DNA from: a virus
Taxonomy: Duplodnaviria > Caudoviricetes
Length of the DNA: 64,000 nt
Strand: one strand, 5' to 3'
Virus record (IMG/VR): IMGVR_UViG_3300033407_000009
Location: 6,269-70,268 of that record
The position numbers were made by a program, and so were the translations under genes. Positions within the stretch are counted from its first letter, which is position 1; the number at the start of each line of letters is the position of its first letter. Below are positions 2,423 to 33,248 of the stretch, piece by piece. Under the pieces are notes generated by a model. That model worked only from the letters and a program-made list of their open reading frames with translations, was not told where the DNA came from and ran no database searches.

Positions 2423-3121
2423 TCACTCCTTCCCGCAAAGGGACTCCAGCCTCTTAAGGATTCTTCGCACCTTGGTCGCCGTCCACAGTTTCGTAGGATC
2501 GTACGCGCCGTTGGTGGGAATGCGTTCGTAATTAAGGGCATCGGCGATTTGCTGGAATCCGCACCCTCCATCGCGTTGTATCCTGATTGCGTCTATCACC
2601 TGCTGCTGCTCTTCGACAGGCACCAGCCTCTTTGAATCGGTCGGATCCAGCGTCCAGCCGTAAGGCACCTGGCCCACTCGTTCGCCTCGCTCGCGCTTCT
2701 CGTGCAGCGCTGCCTTGGTGCGCTCGCTGATCGTCTCTCTTTCCCATTGAGCCACGGTCATCAGCATGTTCAAGACGAGGCGCCCCGAAGCCGTCTTGGT
2801 CGAAACGCAGTCGTCAACCGCCAGCAGCGTCACCGTCTTGCTGAAGTAGCGGGTGATGAGCACCTGCCAATCGGCGAGACTCCGGGTGAGTCGGTCCAGC
2901 TTGGCGACGATAATTCCCTTGGACTTCCGGGAATCGAGTAACCGCATGGCATGCTGGAACCCCGGCCTCTTGAGCGAGCGGCCGCTCCCGCCGATGTCCT
3001 CGATCCAATGCTCGACTTCATGGCCGTACAGCTCGCAGAAGGACTGGATCTTCTTCCGCTGCACTTCCGGGGAGATTTCCTGGATCTCCTTCGATACGCG
3101 GATGTAGCCGATGAGCTTCAT
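2423..3121 (-). CDS. serine recombinase (resolvase/invertase catalytic domain plus short recombinase DNA-binding segment)
   Basis: N-terminal GYIRVS (catalytic Ser), IEDIGGSG, RPGF, AKLDRLTR, helix E ERETISERTKAAL, C-terminal PYGW...W...VRRIL. Confidence 0.9.
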   Translation of the reverse strand: MKLIGYIRVSKEIQEISPEVQRKKIQSFCELYGHEVEHWIEDIGGSGRSLKRPGFQHAMRLLDSRKSKGIIVAKLDRLTRSLADWQVLITRYFSKTVTLLAVDDCVSTKTASGRLVLNMLMTVAQWERETISERTKAALHEKRERGERVGQVPYGWTLDPTDSKRLVPVEEQQQVIDAIRIQRDGGCGFQQIADALNYERIPTNGAYDPTKLWTATKVRRILKRLESLCGKE

Positions 3122-3621
3122 GACAGTGCGGTTTTGTGGAATTTATTCTGGCAGTGGCGACAAATGATCACGGAATCGAGCGGTGCCTCGGATATTGTCG
3201 AATTTCTCGTGCGTCCGCCGCAGTGTGGACAACGTATCGATGCGCTTTGGTAGATCCAGAATCCCGCCAGCCAGAGGATCGGATTGAGGATCACGGCCAA
3301 GATAAATCCGTCGAAACTGCCGCCACTCCCGGCAGCCGAGCCCCACAGCCCCAGCAATGCAGTTATGATTCCCGCCGGCAACATCCAGCCCGAGCGCCCC
3401 CCCGTTGGGAATTGGCCCCCGTGCCCAGCCCAACCACCGCCTGTCCGGTTCCGGCTGGTTCCGGCTGGTTCCGGCTGGTTCTCTCGGACTACCTGGGGTT
3501 TCTCCTGCTCTACCGGATTGCGTGGCGGTTCTGTTGCTGCGAGCGGTTCGGCTGTCGTGTACGCGACAATACATCCGGTTGCGATCGCAGCGATGATGAA
3601 GCAGTAGGCCAGGATGATCAC
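3118..3621 (-). CDS. membrane protein with C-terminal zinc ribbon
   Basis: N-terminal hydrophobic helix, two further TM segments, CPHC...CRHC; overlaps neighbours by ATGA-type coupling. Confidence 0.6.
   Translation of the reverse strand: MIILAYCFIIAAIATGCIVAYTTAEPLAATEPPRNPVEQEKPQVVRENQPEPAGTSRNRTGGGWAGHGGQFPTGGRSGWMLPAGIITALLGLWGSAAGSGGSFDGFILAVILNPILWLAGFWIYQSASIRCPHCGGRTRNSTISEAPLDSVIICRHCQNKFHKTALS
3451..3480. repeat. tandem 10-bp repeat (CCGGCTGGTT)x3 inside the membrane-protein ORF
   Basis: Three exact units, preceded by a partial unit ccggtt at 3445-3450. Confidence 0.9.
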
Positions 3622-3842
3622 GTCACTCTCCTCACTACCTTTGGTTTCGGTTTCGCATTCTCCTTACGCTTGATCTCCAGTCCAAAGTATTTCACCAGCG
3701 TGTCGACCATCTTCTGCGAGAACGCTCGCTCCCCTTTGGCGCAGCGGTAGAGGGCCGTGTAATGAAGGCCGGTGCGGCGCGCCAATTCCCGGTAGGTGAA
3801 CCCGGATTCAGATATGAGCCGTCTCAATTCGTCGGTGAGCAT
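3618..3842 (-). CDS. XRE/Cro-CI family HTH repressor
   Basis: LRRLISESGFTYRELARRTGLHYTALYRCAKGER...VDTLVKYFGL is a typical HTH_3 pattern. Confidence 0.85.
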   Translation of the reverse strand: MLTDELRRLISESGFTYRELARRTGLHYTALYRCAKGERAFSQKMVDTLVKYFGLEIKRKENAKPKPKVVRRVT

Positions 3843-4737: not shown

Positions 4738-5607
4738 TCACGCCACGTCCGGCGGCATCTGCCGATTCCTCGTCGAGATCGACCGATCGACGTAATACTT
4801 TCGCATGTCCGGCGTGCGATGTCCAAGGTAATCGCTCACTGCCTCTGGGTGCTCGATGTCCAGTTGCGTCGCCCCCGTCCGGCGAAGCTGCTGCATCGCC
4901 CCGTGCCTGACTCCCGCAATCGCAGTGACGTTGTCCCGCCACCAAACGTACCAGTTGGACTCGTTCGCAAACGGACACTTCAGCACCGGATCCCGCTCCA
5001 GACGCAGCACCAGAGCCAGCGTACGCGGCCGTAGCTGCGGATAGTGGCTGTGGCCGGTCTTGTGCTGCCGGAGCACGACGGCCCCCGTAGGCGTGATCTG
5101 GGAGCGTCTGATCCGCCAGATATCCGACCTTCTAAGTCCGCTGTCATAGACCGCGCAGACCAGCGATTCGCAGTACAGGGCCCGCGGCGTTCCGTCCGGG
5201 AAGTAGCCGACCAGCGCCCGGCAGCGTCGGAGCACGGCCCGCAGCTCGGGAATGGTCCAGGCGGTCGGGCAGGGATCCGGCTTGCGGACACGGCGGACGC
5301 GGCGCGGCCCCTCGACCAGCCCAGCACGGAAGCAGTCTCGCCAGACCATGAGCAAATTCGTCCGGTGGCTGAGGACGGTTCGCTGGGCGTACGTCAATTC
5401 GAGGTGCTGCAGCCAGCGGCTGACCTGGTCGTCTTCCAGATCCAAGAGCTTGGCCGGGCGTCCCAGCCATTCGCCAAAGAGCCGGACAGTGCGCCCCAGC
5501 TGGTATTCGGTAGTGGCTGCCAAGCTGCGATACAGGCTGTACCGCGCGATGTGCGGAAGGATTTCTGACACGGATTTTGCCCCGGTTGTGCCCCGCAAAC
5601 GGTGCAC
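4738..5607 (-). CDS. int: tyrosine recombinase/integrase
   Basis: DSGLRRSDI (Arg I), HKTG (Lys), QQLRRTGAT (HxxR variant), YLGH and YY (catalytic Tyr); upstream core-binding helices. Confidence 0.9.
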   Translation of the reverse strand: MHRLRGTTGAKSVSEILPHIARYSLYRSLAATTEYQLGRTVRLFGEWLGRPAKLLDLEDDQVSRWLQHLELTYAQRTVLSHRTNLLMVWRDCFRAGLVEGPRRVRRVRKPDPCPTAWTIPELRAVLRRCRALVGYFPDGTPRALYCESLVCAVYDSGLRRSDIWRIRRSQITPTGAVVLRQHKTGHSHYPQLRPRTLALVLRLERDPVLKCPFANESNWYVWWRDNVTAIAGVRHGAMQQLRRTGATQLDIEHPEAVSDYLGHRTPDMRKYYVDRSISTRNRQMPPDVA

Positions 5608-5770: not shown

Positions 5771-5844
5771 CGGGGTGTGGCTCAGCCTGGTAGAGCGCCT
5801 GCTTCGGGAGCAGGAGGTCGCAAGTTCAAATCTTGTCACCCCGA
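5771..5844 (+). tRNA. trnP: tRNA-Pro(CGG), CCA not encoded
   Basis: Acceptor CGGGGTG/CACCCCG, D arm GCTC/GAGC, anticodon stem CCTGC/GCAGG with loop TTCGGGA, T arm GCAAG-TTCAAAT-CTTGT. Confidence 0.95.
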
Positions 5845-5851
5845 CTGTTTA

Positions 5852-6123: not shown

Positions 6124-6151
6124 TTGCAAGACGCATTCTGAGTTGCATAAT
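6124..6151 (+). promoter_or_regulatory. early rightward promoter
   Basis: TTGCAA-16bp-CATAAT, same architecture as the promoter at 5852. Confidence 0.6.
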
Positions 6152-6181
6152 GTCCTGGTGTTGACGCACTGGGACTCAAAG

Positions 6182-6211
6182 GCCCGGTGCAAATGAGCAC
6201 CGGGCTTTTTT
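6182..6211 (+). terminator. intrinsic terminator/attenuator just downstream of the early promoter
   Basis: GCCCGGTGC-aaatga-GCACCGGGC followed by TTTTTT. Confidence 0.8.
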
Positions 6212-6301: not shown

Positions 6302-6450
6302 TCATGGAATCGCGTGGTTTCCTAGGGGTGCTCGCAGCCCCCATGGCGAGAAGTCGCACGGCCCAATGTGCCGCGCGAGCCTCTCGCCGAATCCCACAAA
6401 TGCCGGATGAATGGGCCGGCAAGTTCCGAACCCGCCACGCGATTCCATGA
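6302..6450 (+). ncRNA. putative tracrRNA-like scaffold for the Cas12f-like protein
   Basis: Closed by a perfect 16-bp inverted repeat (6302-6317/6435-6450). Contains GCTCGCAG (6330-6337), complementary to the repeat end CTGCGAG+C, and AGTTCCGAACCC (6422-6433), complementary to repeat GGGTTTGGAACT with one G:U. Confidence 0.65.
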
Positions 6451-6471
6451 TGTGCATTTTTGTTTTTCTTT

Positions 6472-6488
6472 GGTTTGGAACTGCGGAG
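6472..6488 (+). repeat. solo fragment of the CRISPR repeat abutting an RBS
   Basis: GGTTTGGAACTGCG (14 nt identical to the repeat) followed by gagAAAGGA and ATG at 6502. Confidence 0.8.
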
Positions 6489-6501: not shown

Positions 6502-7002
6502 ATGACCACGAAAACCACCTCACAAAAGCACGCTCATCTGAAGTCTCTCGCCAAGAAGAATCGTCTCGATGTCTACGAGATGATCCGCCTGGCCAGCGAC
6601 ATTCTTGCCGACCACGAGTACGTCGATTCGCTGGGAGGCGAGGCGGCGGTGCTCGACATGCTGGCCGCTGATGAATTCGCGCACTTTCCCACGCGCCCAG
6701 CCGTCAAGACGATGGTCGACGCGTATCGCGCCAACCCCGATCGCAAGACCTGGAAAGAATACGCATACAGCACGGAGGCGATGGTCGAGCTGGCCAAGCC
6801 GGAGAAGTTGAAGCCCGAAGGAGATCGCACCGACTGGAAGGCATTGGCGAAGGAACGGGAAGCTCGCGTCGCCGAGTTGGAGGCAGTGGTGGCAGACCTT
6901 CGGGCGCGATGCAGCGAGTTGTCTACTCGCGTCGAGGAATTGCTCGGCGTGAATGGCGAACTGCGTGGACGGATCAAGGCGCGACACGAAATGATCGCGT
7001 GA
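6502..7002 (+). CDS. hypothetical protein with C-terminal coiled coil
   Basis: RBS AAAGGA; heptad-rich C-terminus; first gene of the operon. Confidence 0.65.
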   Translation: MTTKTTSQKHAHLKSLAKKNRLDVYEMIRLASDILADHEYVDSLGGEAAVLDMLAADEFAHFPTRPAVKTMVDAYRANPDRKTWKEYAYSTEAMVELAKPEKLKPEGDRTDWKALAKEREARVAELEAVVADLRARCSELSTRVEELLGVNGELRGRIKARHEMIA

Positions 7003-7017: not shown

Positions 7018-8154
7018 GTGAGCGATGGAATTGCAGTGCTCAAACTGAAGGTTACATCGTCGTCAGTCGACCTAGAGCCGGTCGCCGAGATGTGCCGCAA
7101 GGCTCGCAATATGGCTGTCATTGATTGGCTGCTGCGTCAGAAAGGAATGCCACCATCAGAGAGGCAGTCAAAGCGGCATATCAAGCGCAAAGACAAGGCA
7201 GCTGACGCCCCGACGTCTGAATCGAACAAGATTTATCACGCCATCCGGGACGCCGTACCAGCCTTGTCGGCAGACGTGGCATCATCGCTTTCTCAGGCGG
7301 TGAATAGCTATCTCGGCGGCAAGATGGACTGGCGCGAAGGCAAGAGCGAGGACGGCAAGAGGCCGCGCAGGAGAGATGCCATTGCGGAATTCAGGATGAG
7401 GGCTCCGTTCGCGACGGCCTTGGAAATTCCACTTGCCAACAAGAATGTCACGCTGGCATTCACCGACACGATGACCGTCAGGGTGCGGCGAGTGCTGACC
7501 GGCGAGCCGGATATCGAGTTGGTGTTGTCGACCCGGAACATGCCTGCTGGTATCAAGCTGCTAATCCGAGACGTGATCGACGGTCGGAAGAAGCTGGCCG
7601 ATTCGAAGCTGATCCTTCGCCAGGAAAGCTGGTACGTCCATCTGCCTATCTCATGCCCCGCTGTCCCACTTGATCCCGAGCGCGTGGCAACTCTATCGCC
7701 GATCCAGGGAGATGGCCGCTACGACCGACCGTTCCGTCTGAAGCTGCCCAACCAAAATCGCGAGATCGGAGACGGCTGGTACTTGAAGAGCCAGGCGGAG
7801 CGATTCGTGGGATTGCGAAAGCAGATTGGGTGGCGCTACCGGCAGCGCCAGGGAGCCGGACACGGCCGCAAGAAAGCGGACGCGGCAGTGCGTAAGCGCA
7901 TCAAGCAGTTTGCCGACATTGTGTCGGAGGTCAGGCGGCGCATGATCCGGGACATCGTGTCGTGGTGCGAGCGGCGGCAGTGCGGACTGCTGGTCTATCA
8001 CGAGCCGACGTTGCCCCTCAGGACGAAGTGCTGGTTTGCGGCGAATGGCGTGGATTGGGATTGGACTCGGTTTGTCGGCGACTTGGAAAACTCCTGCAAG
8101 CGAAATGGCATTCGGCTCGACAAGCGGCAGCTGAAGCTAAAGGACGTCGCATGA
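7018..8154 (+). CDS. cas12f: Cas12f/TnpB-family protein, predicted nuclease-dead and C-terminally truncated
   Basis: Collinear with Cas12f1 as recalled: KIYHAIR..LSADVASSLSQAV (REC), SWYVHL..LDPERVATLSP (RuvC-I GIDLG, Asp lost), GAGHGRKK (conserved GHGR), GLLVYHEPT (RuvC-II), WDWTRFVGDLENSCKRNGI. Ends before the Zn finger/RuvC-III. GTG start with AAGGAGG; adjacent CRISPR array. Confidence 0.8.
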   Translation: MSDGIAVLKLKVTSSSVDLEPVAEMCRKARNMAVIDWLLRQKGMPPSERQSKRHIKRKDKAADAPTSESNKIYHAIRDAVPALSADVASSLSQAVNSYLGGKMDWREGKSEDGKRPRRRDAIAEFRMRAPFATALEIPLANKNVTLAFTDTMTVRVRRVLTGEPDIELVLSTRNMPAGIKLLIRDVIDGRKKLADSKLILRQESWYVHLPISCPAVPLDPERVATLSPIQGDGRYDRPFRLKLPNQNREIGDGWYLKSQAERFVGLRKQIGWRYRQRQGAGHGRKKADAAVRKRIKQFADIVSEVRRRMIRDIVSWCERRQCGLLVYHEPTLPLRTKCWFAANGVDWDWTRFVGDLENSCKRNGIRLDKRQLKLKDVA

Positions 8155-8441
8155 AAGCGTTGCCGTGCGCGTGTTGCGCAAGGGAAGTGCGTATCCGGGA
8201 TCGGTCACGATTCTTACGGATGGTGCGCGAGCGACGCCAACCGCTGTGCGAGCAGTGCCGTCGCTACGTAAGAGGGGGGGTCGCTCGCATCGCGCAAGTC
8301 CCTGGAGAGCATGATGATCCGAAGTTGTTCCTGGTCAGGGGTCGTGGAAAACACGCACGCAAGAGGAAGGCTCTCGCAAGTCAGCCTCTGGCGCGTGTCT
8401 GCGCAACGGCTTGCGAGGCCGGAGTCGCAGTGGATGAGTGA
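8151..8441 (+). CDS. small zinc-ribbon protein translationally coupled to the Cas12f-like gene
   Basis: ATGA overlap; CACC...CEQC; stop codon lies inside CRISPR repeat 1. Confidence 0.5.
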   Translation: MKALPCACCAREVRIRDRSRFLRMVRERRQPLCEQCRRYVRGGVARIAQVPGEHDDPKLFLVRGRGKHARKRKALASQPLARVCATACEAGVAVDE

Positions 8442-8647
8442 AGGGTTTGGAACTGCGAGCCGGTCCCACCAGCGATACCGCCAGCCGCGGAATCGTCGCA
8501 GTGGATGAGTGAAGGGTTTGGAACTGCGAGCAAAGGTTGACTGCGATGCGAGAAATCATCTAGTCGCAGTGGATGAGTGAAGGGTTTGGAACTGCGAGCG
8601 CCTCGCAGGATGGCGCAGTGGATGAGTGAAGGGTTTGGAACTGCGAG
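8424..8647 (+). CRISPR. mini CRISPR array: 4 x 36-bp repeats GTCGCAGTGGATGAGTGAAGGGTTTGGAACTGCGAG, spacers of 35, 32 and 13 nt
   Basis: Repeats at 8424-8459, 8495-8530, 8563-8598 and 8612-8647 (last has T2G). Terminal inverted TCGCAGT/ACTGCGA. No cas1/cas2 in the window. Confidence 0.95.
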
Positions 8648-8723
8648 TACGAACTGTGCCCCCAGGTGGGAGTACGTATCCCGCCGAAGCTGGTGGCACG
8701 AGCACAAAAGGAGGCGATTTAAA

Positions 8724-9095
8724 ATGTCCCATGATCATCACAAGGCCGCCGTCAAACACATCCTTCGGCGCGTCGTGGAGTCTGGCGATTTCCGCTGGTA
8801 CATGTTGCATACCGAGAGTTTTTCGTTGTGCCTGGCGGCATATGCAGAGGATCTCGGCATCACGAAGGAAGAGGCGGAGAGGCAACTCGACGTAGCCATG
8901 TCGCGGTACGACCCTAGACAACCCCTCGTCGAAGAGCAGCGGCTACAGATTGAGCGTGCCTCCGAGGTGATATACGAGATGCGAGAGGGTGGCAAGCTCG
9001 ACGAGGAGACATGGAGTGATATCTACAACGCACTTCACAGCGAGCCACCGCCGAAGCTGGTGGCACGAGCGATTGCGAACGAGAAAGGACTCTGA
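8724..9095 (+). CDS. hypothetical protein flanked by a 23-bp direct repeat
   Basis: RBS AAGGAGG; CCGCCGAAGCTGGTGGCACGAGC at 8681-8703 and 9048-9070. Confidence 0.7.
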   Translation: MSHDHHKAAVKHILRRVVESGDFRWYMLHTESFSLCLAAYAEDLGITKEEAERQLDVAMSRYDPRQPLVEEQRLQIERASEVIYEMREGGKLDEETWSDIYNALHSEPPPKLVARAIANEKGL

Positions 9096-19736: not shown

Positions 19737-20536
19737 TGGTTCTCGACAGCAAAATCGACATCGTCCGGGACGCTTTCAACATTCATCGTCTGGACGACTG
19801 GACGCGAGTTGAGACGGACGACATTGTCGCGCTGCACGGCGTGGGGGACGTGACGCTCCAGCACATCCGTCTCTATCTGGCAGGCCAAGGCCGAACACTG
19901 CACAACGACCGCACGCCCGGCTACTGGCTGGACCATCTCGGCACGGCCAAGGTGGGGCAACAGATCAGCGATGAGGACAAGTCGATCATCTTCCCGTGCG
20001 CCGTCCTGATCGACACCGCTGAGACGCAGCCGTTCACCTTCCATGGCCTGCGATGCGATGCCGACCAGCAGCATCGGCCGCTCATCGTCAAGACGGAATG
20101 GCGAGCACTTGGCCGGCATCCCGACTCGTTGGGCGACTATTCCCTGGACGGCTACGTCGGCCGCTGCCATGTCGAGCGGAAGTCCGTGAAAGACTTCCAG
20201 GGGACATTGATGGAGTTCGGCCAAGACGGGCGCCGCGAGCGTTTCGAGAGCGAGCTGTCGAACCTGGAGAAGCTCGAAGCAGCGGCCGTCGTCGTCGAGG
20301 GGACACTGCTGCGAGCGATCACCGTCCAGCACGAATACGGCAAGAAGCCTAGCCAGGAAGCGGCCAAACTGCTCATGCGATCAGTGCTCGCCTACCAGCA
20401 GGATTACGACGTACCCTGGCTGTTCTGCGACGATCGACGCATGGCCGAGGTTGCCACGTTCCGGTTTCTGGAGCGATTCTGGAGGAAGGATCAGGAGAAG
20501 AGGAAAGAAGCAGAGAGGATGTTGGCGGGGATTTAG
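19736..20536 (+). CDS. ERCC4/XPF-family nuclease (probable junction resolvase)
   Basis: VLIDTAETQP, GDYS, VERKS, VVVEG motifs; N-terminal HhH-like LHGVGDVTL; GTG start with GGGGAGG. Confidence 0.85.
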   Translation: MVLDSKIDIVRDAFNIHRLDDWTRVETDDIVALHGVGDVTLQHIRLYLAGQGRTLHNDRTPGYWLDHLGTAKVGQQISDEDKSIIFPCAVLIDTAETQPFTFHGLRCDADQQHRPLIVKTEWRALGRHPDSLGDYSLDGYVGRCHVERKSVKDFQGTLMEFGQDGRRERFESELSNLEKLEAAAVVVEGTLLRAITVQHEYGKKPSQEAAKLLMRSVLAYQQDYDVPWLFCDDRRMAEVATFRFLERFWRKDQEKRKEAERMLAGI

Positions 20537-20564
20537 TGCAGCGGATGAGGTTTGGAACTGCGAG
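20536..20564 (+). repeat. solo degenerate CRISPR repeat upstream of the primase
   Basis: GTGCAGCGGATGA-GGTTTGGAACTGCGAG equals the array repeat with an internal ~6-nt deletion; the last 16 nt are identical. Confidence 0.9.
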
Positions 20565-30080: not shown

Positions 30081-30196
30081 ACCAACGTGAACACGACCGA
30101 ACCACAACGAACCACGCGCGGCCCTAGTACGCTCTGCGCTACTCGCGCTGGTCGTGTTCACCCTAGGGCCGCGCATTTTTCCATTGGAGGTGAACC

Positions 30197-30715
30197 ATGG
30201 AAACCACGACGCGAGAAGAGTTTGCAAGTCTCTACCCCCTCATCCGCCACATTGCCCGCCGGCGGATCACGCGCAGTCTGGCACTGGCCGGAATCTCCAA
30301 TCCAACCGAGCTCCAGGATCGACTGGACAACGCGATAGCTCACTCGTGGGTGCTCTACTGCCGCCATCGGCCGACAATGGAGTCGGCCCGGGAATGTGCG
30401 GTCAAGGCCGCCAGTCTGGCTGCGCGCAAGACTCACCTAGTCGGTGGCACCCGCCGGCCCGGCTACGTCGACGCGATGGATCGGAGGGATTTCCGCAAGG
30501 TGGATCTGTCCACCGTCCCAGTCGACACCGAGCTCCGCCAGCGGGACGATTCAGACGCCCAGTCTCGGCTACTCGACTCACTCCCGGCTGTCCTTCGGCC
30601 GATCGCTGTACTGCTGATGGCAGGCCTATCACGTGTCGAGATTGCCAGACGGCGGCACTGCTCGCCAGCCACGATTACCCGCCGCTGCGATTCGATCGCC
30701 GAGTTGATCGGGTAG
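30197..30715 (+). CDS. ECF/sigma70-like factor (region 4 HTH)
   Basis: LLDSLPAVLRPIAVLLMAGLSRVEIARRRHCSPATITRR (sigma r4) with a region-2-like N-terminus; RBS GGAGG. Confidence 0.7.
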   Translation: METTTREEFASLYPLIRHIARRRITRSLALAGISNPTELQDRLDNAIAHSWVLYCRHRPTMESARECAVKAASLAARKTHLVGGTRRPGYVDAMDRRDFRKVDLSTVPVDTELRQRDDSDAQSRLLDSLPAVLRPIAVLLMAGLSRVEIARRRHCSPATITRRCDSIAELIG

Positions 30716-30739
30716 ACTGGGGACGTCGGCTGTTCCTCT

Positions 30740-30775
30740 AACCCCGTACTGGCTAACGTTGGTGCGGGGTTTTTC
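30740..30775 (+). terminator. intrinsic terminator
   Basis: AACCCCGTAC...GTGCGGGGTT then TTTT. Confidence 0.7.
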
Positions 30776-33102: not shown

Positions 33103-33248
33103 TTGACTAAAGTCCAGAAACTTCCCACCATTTCCAGTAGGTGATTTGGAACTGCGAGCAGTAGCGGGTGGTAAGGCCACCCGAACTCACCAGCGTTAGC
33201 GGACACGAAAACCCGCGGCTGCCTTTCATGGCGGCTGGCGGGTTTTTT
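33103..33248 (+). ncRNA. putative stand-alone crRNA-like small RNA (promoter + solo repeat fragment + hairpin + terminator)
   Basis: TTGACT-17bp-CACCAT; TTTGGAACTGCGAGC at 33145-33159; hairpin CGGGTGG/CCACCCG; terminator AACCCGCGGCTGCC...GGCGGCTGGCGGGTTTTTT ending at 33248. Confidence 0.6.

Follow-up and report, generated by a model that had tools for sequence, protein, structure and literature searches.

A phage-borne module with a predicted nuclease-dead, truncated Cas12f-like protein, a CRISPR array and a tracrRNA-like RNA

Results

Organization of the module

The window analysed here was a stretch of 64,000 nucleotides from a tailed phage (Caudoviricetes), positions 6,269 to 70,268 of the IMG/VR virus record IMGVR_UViG_3300033407_000009. 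It carried a small CRISPR module grouped around the gene of a putatively nuclease-dead, C-terminally truncated Cas12f-like effector at positions 7018-8154 of the window. Five conserved parts were recognized, namely a trans-activating CRISPR RNA (tracrRNA), a protein gene designated orfU, the dead Cas12f-like protein, a gene for a Zn-ribbon protein designated ORF2, and a CRISPR array. In this phage all of them shared one orientation, beside an integrase-like gene and with a promoter-like site upstream. The whole record comprised 70,268 bases with a CheckV completeness of about 70%. Three full viral records were compared, the phage's own (G000) and the related G001 and G002, which were 63-70% complete.

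The Cas12f-like effector

The effector gene (plus strand, GTG start) encoded a protein of 378 amino acids, the same open reading frame (ORF) that had been pointed out in a first-pass annotation made from the sequence alone. Nothing in Pfam, NCBIfam or PHROGs matched this protein, and a single-sequence phmmer search with the effector alone gave a weak match to OsCas12f (E 0.0055). When a profile of the effector and 26 close homologues was compared with PDB sequences, AsCas12f (E 2.1e-9), OsCas12f (5.1e-9) and a solved nuclease-dead Cas12f (1e-6) were retrieved. An AlphaFold2 model computed from the alignment of the close homologues had a mean predicted local distance difference test score (pLDDT) of 91.5, and its top match in Foldseek was AsCas12f (7wju_A, E 9e-19). 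In VIA-align, AsCas12f (8dzj_A) was superimposed over 327 residues with a Z score of 22.6 and a root-mean-square deviation of 6.8, followed by dCas12f (nuclease-dead Cas12f, 9n9c) with a Z of 20.9, other Cas12f proteins with 17-19, TnpB with 13.9 and Cas12m2 with 10.5. Judged by its modelled fold and by the profile, the effector is a Cas12f homologue, and the likeness to Cas12f proposed in the first-pass annotation was borne out by both approaches.

The motif readings of that annotation agreed with HMMER alignments to OsCas12f and AsCas12f. The GxDxG motif of RuvC-I was replaced by TLSPI, with Ser at the position of the RuvC-I Asp, and the RuvC-II region read VYHEP. The polypeptide contained neither an intact RuvC D-E-D triad nor a C4 Zn finger (TNB domain).

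Further, a search of 1.84 billion cluster representatives returned at least 214 relatives of the effector (clusters at 50% identity), 143 of them below E 1e-10, and a family of this extent is therefore taken to be maintained by selection. All members that were looked up came from metagenomes and were unnamed or hypothetical, and a search of 185,579 species-representative genomes (one per species) gave no relative. The 26 closest relatives (34-48% identity, alignment A1) were 374-463 amino acids long and had the same end point as the effector. Residues were counted over 134 aligned representatives of the family. The column of the RuvC-I Asp was occupied by Thr, Glu, Val, Arg, Trp and others, with Asp not among the eight commonest residues, and the Glu of RuvC-II was kept in 107 of the 134. 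A CxxC motif was present in none of the C-terminal tails (0/134), and the segment of the Zn finger and RuvC-III was absent across the representatives. Distant relatives ended in low-complexity basic tails, and no family member had a fused effector-Zn-ribbon form. Because the same losses were shared across the 134 representatives, the truncation and the predicted loss of nuclease activity are regarded as conserved family traits and not as decay.

The Zn-ribbon protein ORF2

The Zn finger and RuvC-III had been described as missing in the first-pass annotation. This held for the effector polypeptide and family-wide, but a translationally coupled Zn-ribbon gene, conserved in every related locus, had been overlooked. 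The gene, ORF2 (8151-8441, plus strand), encoded a protein of 96 amino acids with a CxxC-x23-CxxC pattern and a basic tail. Its ATG overlapped the TGA stop codon of the effector (ATGA), and its own stop codon fell inside the first repeat of the array. The gap of about 270 bp noted earlier between the effector and the array was thus correct as a distance, but it was not empty, being filled by ORF2. Of 27 close-homologue proteins (the effector included), 18 ended in Ala or Val, which fits an ATGA or GTGA overlap with ORF2.

A homologue of ORF2 was found by tblastn in 20 of 20 related loci, and the four Cys residues were invariant in 16 sequences. ORF2 was taken to be a coding gene because substitutions were mostly located at third codon positions (e.g. 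26/21/49 by position). In the AlphaFold2 model the Zn ribbon had a pLDDT of 80-89 and the tail was disordered. It was considered whether ORF2 might be the Zn-finger domain of Cas12f, split off from the effector; the comparisons spoke neither for nor against this origin, as the fold search gave generic Zn-ribbon matches only and ORF2 had no sequence match to Cas12f chains. No known effector, sigma or recombinase family was matched. In L006, L015 and L016, ORF2 was located upstream of the effector with an array in between, and in L022 other parts of the module intervened between the two genes. Therefore, ORF2 is an independent gene and not a frameshifted tail of the effector.

These data also bear on the possibility that the locus is a decaying remnant, i.e. 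a non-functional Cas12f pseudogene that arose by a frameshift, beside an array that was left behind. Such a remnant could be read from the -1 frame of ORF2, which lies exactly at the place of the Cas12f Zn finger, yet all of the 20 related loci, with protein identities of 39-51%, showed the same split, and ORF2 was separated from the effector in the four loci named above. The coding-type substitution bias of ORF2, the confidently folded model of the effector and the lack of a fused form in the family likewise contradicted it. As far as sequence comparison reaches, the remnant was refuted by the conservation data, and we consider it extremely improbable.

The orfU gene

The second partner gene, orfU (6502-7002, plus strand), encoded a conserved protein of 166 amino acids in which a coiled-coil tail follows a globular N-terminal part (alignment A8). 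Matches were obtained by tblastn in 13 related loci with E values of 1e-24 to 1e-41, and in every locus with enough upstream sequence the gene was located about 40-55 nt downstream of the tracrRNA. No Pfam family above threshold and no known effector, sigma or recombinase family corresponded to orfU, and its matches in the protein atlas were viral hypothetical proteins only.

The tracrRNA

A conserved structured RNA (6324-6445, plus strand) was recognized by the covariance model R1 with 130 bits at this site; it matched no Rfam family. Two of its segments were complementary to the repeat of the array. The loop of the 5' hairpin (about 6330-6337) complemented the last 7-8 nt of the repeat, and a 3' anti-repeat (about 6419-6434) complemented repeat positions of about 20-33, the duplex containing a single bulged A and a single G:U pair. 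Two repeat:anti-repeat contacts are also found in Cas12f guide RNAs.

Duplex energy alone ranked the anti-repeat only third genome-wide, and its identification was settled because of the comparison between loci. In four loci (the window, L014, L022 and L019), the sequence outside the array that paired best with the local repeat was located near the module on the coding strand and had the same bulged-A geometry. These four regions could be aligned and shared a structure, and R1 was built from them. The model matched 15 loci, all on the plus strand, with E values of 1e-26 to 8e-4. Compensatory changes were observed in 13 of the 19 pairs, the proportion of paired cells was 92% compared with 31-53% in slid controls, and the observed values were reached by 0 of 500 shuffles. 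The duplexes between the 3' anti-repeat and the 3' half of the repeat had energies of -20.6 to -30.5 kcal/mol in six loci, and the anti-repeat varied together with the local repeat. The 5' loop varied with the repeat too; in L011, for instance, the repeat ended in TGTGAG and the loop read CTCACA. Structure, covariation and complementarity together identify the RNA at 6324-6445 as the predicted tracrRNA of the module.

The strongest duplex with the 3' half of the repeat (-27.9 kcal/mol) was formed by the segment 2081-2113 on the minus strand. It was rejected as an anti-repeat and taken as chance, being located inside coding sequence and having no counterpart in other loci.

The CRISPR array and scattered repeat pieces

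The array (8424-8647, plus strand) consisted of four direct repeats of 36 nt (8424-8459, 8495-8530, 8563-8598 and 8612-8647) separated by spacers of 35 nt (8460-8494), 32 nt (8531-8562) and 13 nt (8599-8611). A core of 33 nt was identical in all four repeats. The first-pass annotation had reported four such repeats with terminal inverted ends, and these were indeed visible as a 7-bp inverted repeat. It had also counted 8648-8680 as a spacer; this sequence only trailed the last repeat, and the true third spacer was the one of 13 nt. By its position alone, the trailing sequence (plus strand) may be a fourth guide, if the CRISPR RNA (crRNA) is composed of a repeat followed by a spacer as in type V.

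The 3' half of the repeat (17 nt) occurred in 7 copies on the plus strand, when 0.24 were expected. One half-repeat (6471-6487, plus strand), with 14 contiguous identical bases in a 17-nt match, was located in the leader of orfU, directly upstream of the ribosome-binding site. It was significant in this phage (p<0.001) but was not conserved in five other loci, and a conserved single guide acting in cis was rejected on this ground. A solo degenerate repeat (20536-20564, plus strand) was found between the genes of an ERCC4-type nuclease and a primase, with an internal deletion of about 6 nt and one mismatch in its 3' 17 nt. A solo half-repeat with two mismatches (33142-33158, plus strand) had an intrinsic-terminator-like hairpin (33216-33237) about 58 nt further downstream, and a consensus promoter scan for this piece found none; a stand-alone crRNA-like transcript is possible at this site. 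The solo pieces could be extra guides, or they could be tracrRNA-protein binding sites on phage transcripts.

The module in related loci

The module recurred in about 20 related metagenomic loci. Arrays with related repeats, which ended in TTG(C/T)GAG and numbered 3-14 units, adjoined the homologues in at least 12 loci. There were 14 repeats in L011, 10 in L019, 9 plus 3 in L006/L015, and 3-8 in L012, L013, L014, L018, L022, L023 and L024, where several arrays were ended by the contig edge. The spacers of the relatives were 30-41 nt long and differed between arrays. Short spacers of 13-22 nt were present in the window, in the second array of L006/L015, in L012 and in L023. Of the near-identical phages L015 and L016, the former had its first spacer-repeat unit duplicated (7432-7539) and the latter did not (3567-3602), a difference that reveals recent changes in the array in the absence of visible adaptation genes. 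The distant relatives L025 and L039 (about 30% identity) had arrays with the same repeat ends, at least 12 repeats being present in L039; both were without ORF2 and gave no match to the covariance model of the tracrRNA.

Two unusual arrangements were also observed. Three half-repeats about 54 nt apart were located directly upstream of the effector in L039 (4684-4812), in which the full array occupied 2968-3806. In L020, the array that followed ORF2 (7216-7456) had a period of about 35 nt and was composed of repeat pieces of about 14-16 nt, in place of 36-nt repeats, and spacers of about 20 nt.

The order of the parts in the window and in most loci was tracrRNA, orfU, effector, ORF2 and array. 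In L019 the array was located between orfU and the effector, with ORF2 last, and in L022 the effector came first, followed by the tracrRNA, orfU, ORF2 and the array. Because the parts were co-retained through these rearrangements of gene order, they likely work together. The first-pass annotation had described the system as an effector with an array (7018-8647). Its interpretation stood as regards a dead and truncated Cas12f homologue that is set in a phage and has its own array, but the Zn-ribbon gene had been overlooked, and so had the tracrRNA and orfU, both located upstream of that region.

The co-variation of repeats and tracrRNAs was also considered with regard to an anti-CRISPR decoy, in which the dead effector and the phage tracrRNA would soak up the crRNAs or the tracrRNA of a host type V-F system. 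Such a role would agree with a phage-encoded, nuclease-dead module that has its own tracrRNA, and it has been proposed for a phage-encoded Cas9 with an inactivated RuvC domain (PMC11656645, PMC12669027). However, a decoy would be expected to track the repeats of the host, whereas here the repeats and anti-repeats co-evolve in each phage lineage, and the module has its own arrays with many different spacers. Moreover, no related effector was found in the 185,579 species-representative genomes, hence there was no candidate host system. We consider the decoy very unlikely.

Target searches

The spacers of the window, the trailing sequence and the sequences following the solo pieces (seven candidate guides) were compared with the phage record down to seed length and allowing mismatches, and none of them matched. 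The regulation of the phage's own promoters, which had been suggested in the first-pass annotation, found no support, as no guide matched the phage's own 70-kb record. None of the spacers from any array matched the related loci retrieved or the records G000, G001 and G002. Limited scans were made of IMG/VR (22-mers from spacers 1 and 2), GTDB genomes (spacer 1) and INPHARED (arrays of the window, L011 and L039), none of which gave a target. The comparison of spacers with genomes and viromes, which had been put forward earlier as a check, yielded no protospacer in the phage, the related viral records or the limited scans of these three collections. A search of IMG/VR with the 16-nt end of the repeat gave six single matches without flanking similarity, which were taken as chance.

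The phage around the module

The window contained genes of an exonuclease V/Dda-type helicase, a primase and an ERCC4-type nuclease, and genes of a terminase, a portal protein and a major head protein were also present in the phage. A tyrosine-integrase-like ORF (4738-5607, minus strand) had a PF00589 match at 4786-5190 that was under the cut-off (19.7 bits). This ORF marks the lysogeny end of the phage, which adjoins the CRISPR module. Clear integrases were found in the related records G001 and G002. The integrase was located 0.5-1.5 kb from the tracrRNA in G000 and G002, and 24 kb from the module in G001. With integrase genes in three of three records, and beside the module in two, the evidence fits temperate phages as the carriers of the module. 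The temperate phage setting named in the first-pass annotation was in agreement with the integrase-like, primase, terminase, portal and capsid genes around the effector. A Mu-like transposable phage (a V-F CRISPR-associated transposon on Mu) was rejected in view of the primase/helicase and integrase-type genes and of the large ORF at the start of the window, which had no transposase match.

Neither Cas1 (PF01867) nor Cas2 (PF09827) was matched in G000 (70 kb), G001 and G002, which agreed for these two families with the earlier statement that cas1, cas2 and cas4 are missing; Cas4 was not included in the search. Adaptation genes cas1/cas2 are present in only part of V-F loci.

A gene of tRNA-Pro (CGG) was detected by ARAGORN at 5771-5845 (plus strand), between the integrase-like gene and the module, and gave a partial match to the Rfam tRNA family. 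A sigma-70-like promoter candidate upstream of the module (6124-6151, plus strand) was obtained as a pattern match only in a consensus scan. Less than 30 nt downstream of it, and upstream of the tracrRNA, a strong terminator-like hairpin was located (6178-6209). This succession of a promoter-like site and a terminator-like hairpin (6124-6209) suggests an attenuated or regulated entry into the module. Downstream of the array, an exact direct repeat of 23 nt able to form a small hairpin was observed at 8681-8703 and 9048-9070. A ribosome-binding site and an ATG (8725 and 9100) followed each copy at a distance of about 20-30 nt, and the element may serve repeatedly in the early operon as a leader or for processing. 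The ORF at 30154-30741 had no Pfam match at E up to 0.1.

Discussion

Based on all comparisons, the locus is probably a tracrRNA-dependent, phage-borne CRISPR module of type V-F (Cas12f) ancestry that has no adaptation genes and an effector able to bind DNA but not to cut it. We propose that the array is transcribed by read-through from the protein genes, because ORF2 ends inside repeat 1. The tracrRNA would pair with each repeat through its two anti-repeat segments in the fashion of Cas12f guide RNAs, and an RNase of the host would trim the tracrRNA:repeat pairs. With tracrRNA and crRNA bound, the Cas12f-like protein would then open an R-loop on complementary DNA. The target DNA would be left uncleaved, because the RuvC-I Asp and the entire Zn-finger/RuvC-III segment are absent. 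The bound complex would block the transcription or replication of the target, like Cas12m, Cas12c and type IV systems, or, alternatively, it would hand the site to the two partner proteins. By analogy, silencing by binding appears to be the most economical mechanism, with binding-only precedents known from Cas12m, Cas12c, type IV systems, TldR and dCas12f (PMC12669027, PMC11656645, PMC13472631). Because the arrays of the relatives are diverse (up to 13 spacers) and no matches were found in the phages themselves, the data point to targets outside the phage, i.e. rival phages, plasmids or host genes.

Several observations weigh against this interpretation. The Glu of the RuvC-II region was found in 80% of the family, and a residual or rearranged activity is formally possible. 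A plain interference model leaves the third spacer of 13 nt and the three solo half-repeats unaccounted for. In addition, no protospacer was found for any guide in the records and collections searched, so that neither a PAM (protospacer adjacent motif) nor a target class or a strand bias could be deduced.

The main rival explanation is a recruited output. In this case, the dead effector would not be a plain blocker but would bring the orfU protein, the Zn-ribbon protein or both to the target, resulting in activation as in dCas12f-sigmaE, in lysogeny control or in guidance of the tyrosine integrase. A simple roadblock needs no extra proteins, and two are strictly conserved with the effector. 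Inactivated TnpB has been linked to phage-type tyrosine recombinases in at least three independent cases (PMC10691335), and dCas12f-sigmaE is a dead Cas12f able to recruit partners (PMC13472631). The closeness of the integrase gene to the tracrRNA in G000 and G002 agrees with such a role, but its distant position in G001 does not, and neither orfU nor ORF2 could be assigned to a known effector, sigma or recombinase family. Interference is also a better fit than a single regulatory or homing target for arrays of up to 13 different spacers. Recruitment in place of blocking is therefore judged unlikely. We also considered, as a tentative and somewhat unlikely possibility, a three-protein, two-RNA system in which the dead Cas12f is the RNA-guided DNA finder only, and the co-inherited Zn-ribbon and coiled-coil proteins give a new output. 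Superinfection or lysogeny control and guidance of the tyrosine integrase would be the candidates, and the solo half-repeats would feed guides or RNA-level self-regulation.

If silencing by binding is true, phages would use a binding-only CRISPR against outside DNA. Naturally dead relatives of Cas12f and TnpB have recently been shown to be programmable transcription factors, the known cases being chromosomal or having one fixed guide. The family described here is widespread and so far unannotated, and in it apparently temperate phages carry the full guide apparatus around a dead effector of 378 amino acids, together with two unknown obligatory partners. The module would also supply the array-plus-tracrRNA stage of the proposed path from Cas12f to the single-guide dCas12f, and would be a very small natural scaffold for CRISPR interference with defined RNA parts.

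Comparison with known systems

The best match of the effector in both structure and profile (Z 22.6; E 2e-9) was to Cas12f1 (type V-F1; AsCas12f, OsCas12f, Un1Cas12f1). The two proteins are similar in size up to the RuvC-II region and share the GHGR motif. In both systems an array with repeats of about 36 nt is adjacent to the effector, and both are tracrRNA-dependent, as judged here from structure, covariation and complementarity. Unlike Cas12f1, the effector is without the RuvC-I Asp and ends before the Zn finger and RuvC-III. The module further differs in being phage-borne and in having two extra conserved proteins, and no relative of its effector was found in the species-representative genomes.

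The dCas12f-sigmaE systems of Bacteroidota use single chimeric guides, and no tracrRNA was found for them (Hoffmann et al., Nature 2026, PMC13472631). They are likewise derived from Cas12f, with a C-terminal truncation that removes RuvC-III or part of the RuvC site, and the Z score of the effector to 9n9c was 20.9. dCas12f-sigmaE is an RNA-guided DNA binder without cleavage, and the same may hold for the effector studied here. In contrast, the module had no rpoE or helix-turn-helix neighbour, and orfU and ORF2 matched no sigma family. A separate tracrRNA and true arrays were present, whereas dCas12f-sigmaE has a single chimeric guide and has lost the array; its hosts are bacterial chromosomes, and the module is found in phages. 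The family profile was closer to active Cas12f1 (2e-9) than to Fta dCas12f (1e-6), which hints that the inactivation may have had an origin separate from that of dCas12f-sigmaE. A dCas12f cluster adjoining CRISPR arrays in bacteria has been mentioned in passing (PMC13472631). Altae-Tran et al. inferred that the array was minimised only after Cas12f had lost RuvC-III and with it its activity (PMC10691335), and the 2025 classification lists several independently inactivated type V variants (PMC12669027). In the literature compared, no phage-encoded dead Cas12f was described as accompanied by a tracrRNA, arrays, a Zn-ribbon protein and orfU.

TldR is also a nuclease-dead protein of the TnpB superfamily and an RNA-guided DNA binder used by temperate phages, some TldRs being prophage-encoded. 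However, it descends directly from TnpB, has a single guide of the omega-RNA type that overlaps the 3' end of its gene, one fixed target and no array. The effector described here was nearer to Cas12f than to TnpB (Z of 22.6 and 13.9, respectively), and it has arrays and a trans-encoded RNA.

Cas12m (V-M), Cas12c (V-C) and type IV systems resemble the module in being located on mobile elements without adaptation genes and in silencing by binding, which is proposed here. Their effectors are unrelated or distant (Z 10.5 for Cas12m), and they have no tracrRNA and other partner proteins. The effector of Cas12m is about 600 amino acids long and uses a crRNA only, whereas the effector of the module has 378 amino acids and is accompanied by a tracrRNA.

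Finally, virus-borne mini-arrays and solitary repeat units are comparable to the short arrays and the single repeats scattered in this phage genome. Such elements rely on or inhibit the Cas proteins of the host, whereas this phage brings its own effector and tracrRNA.

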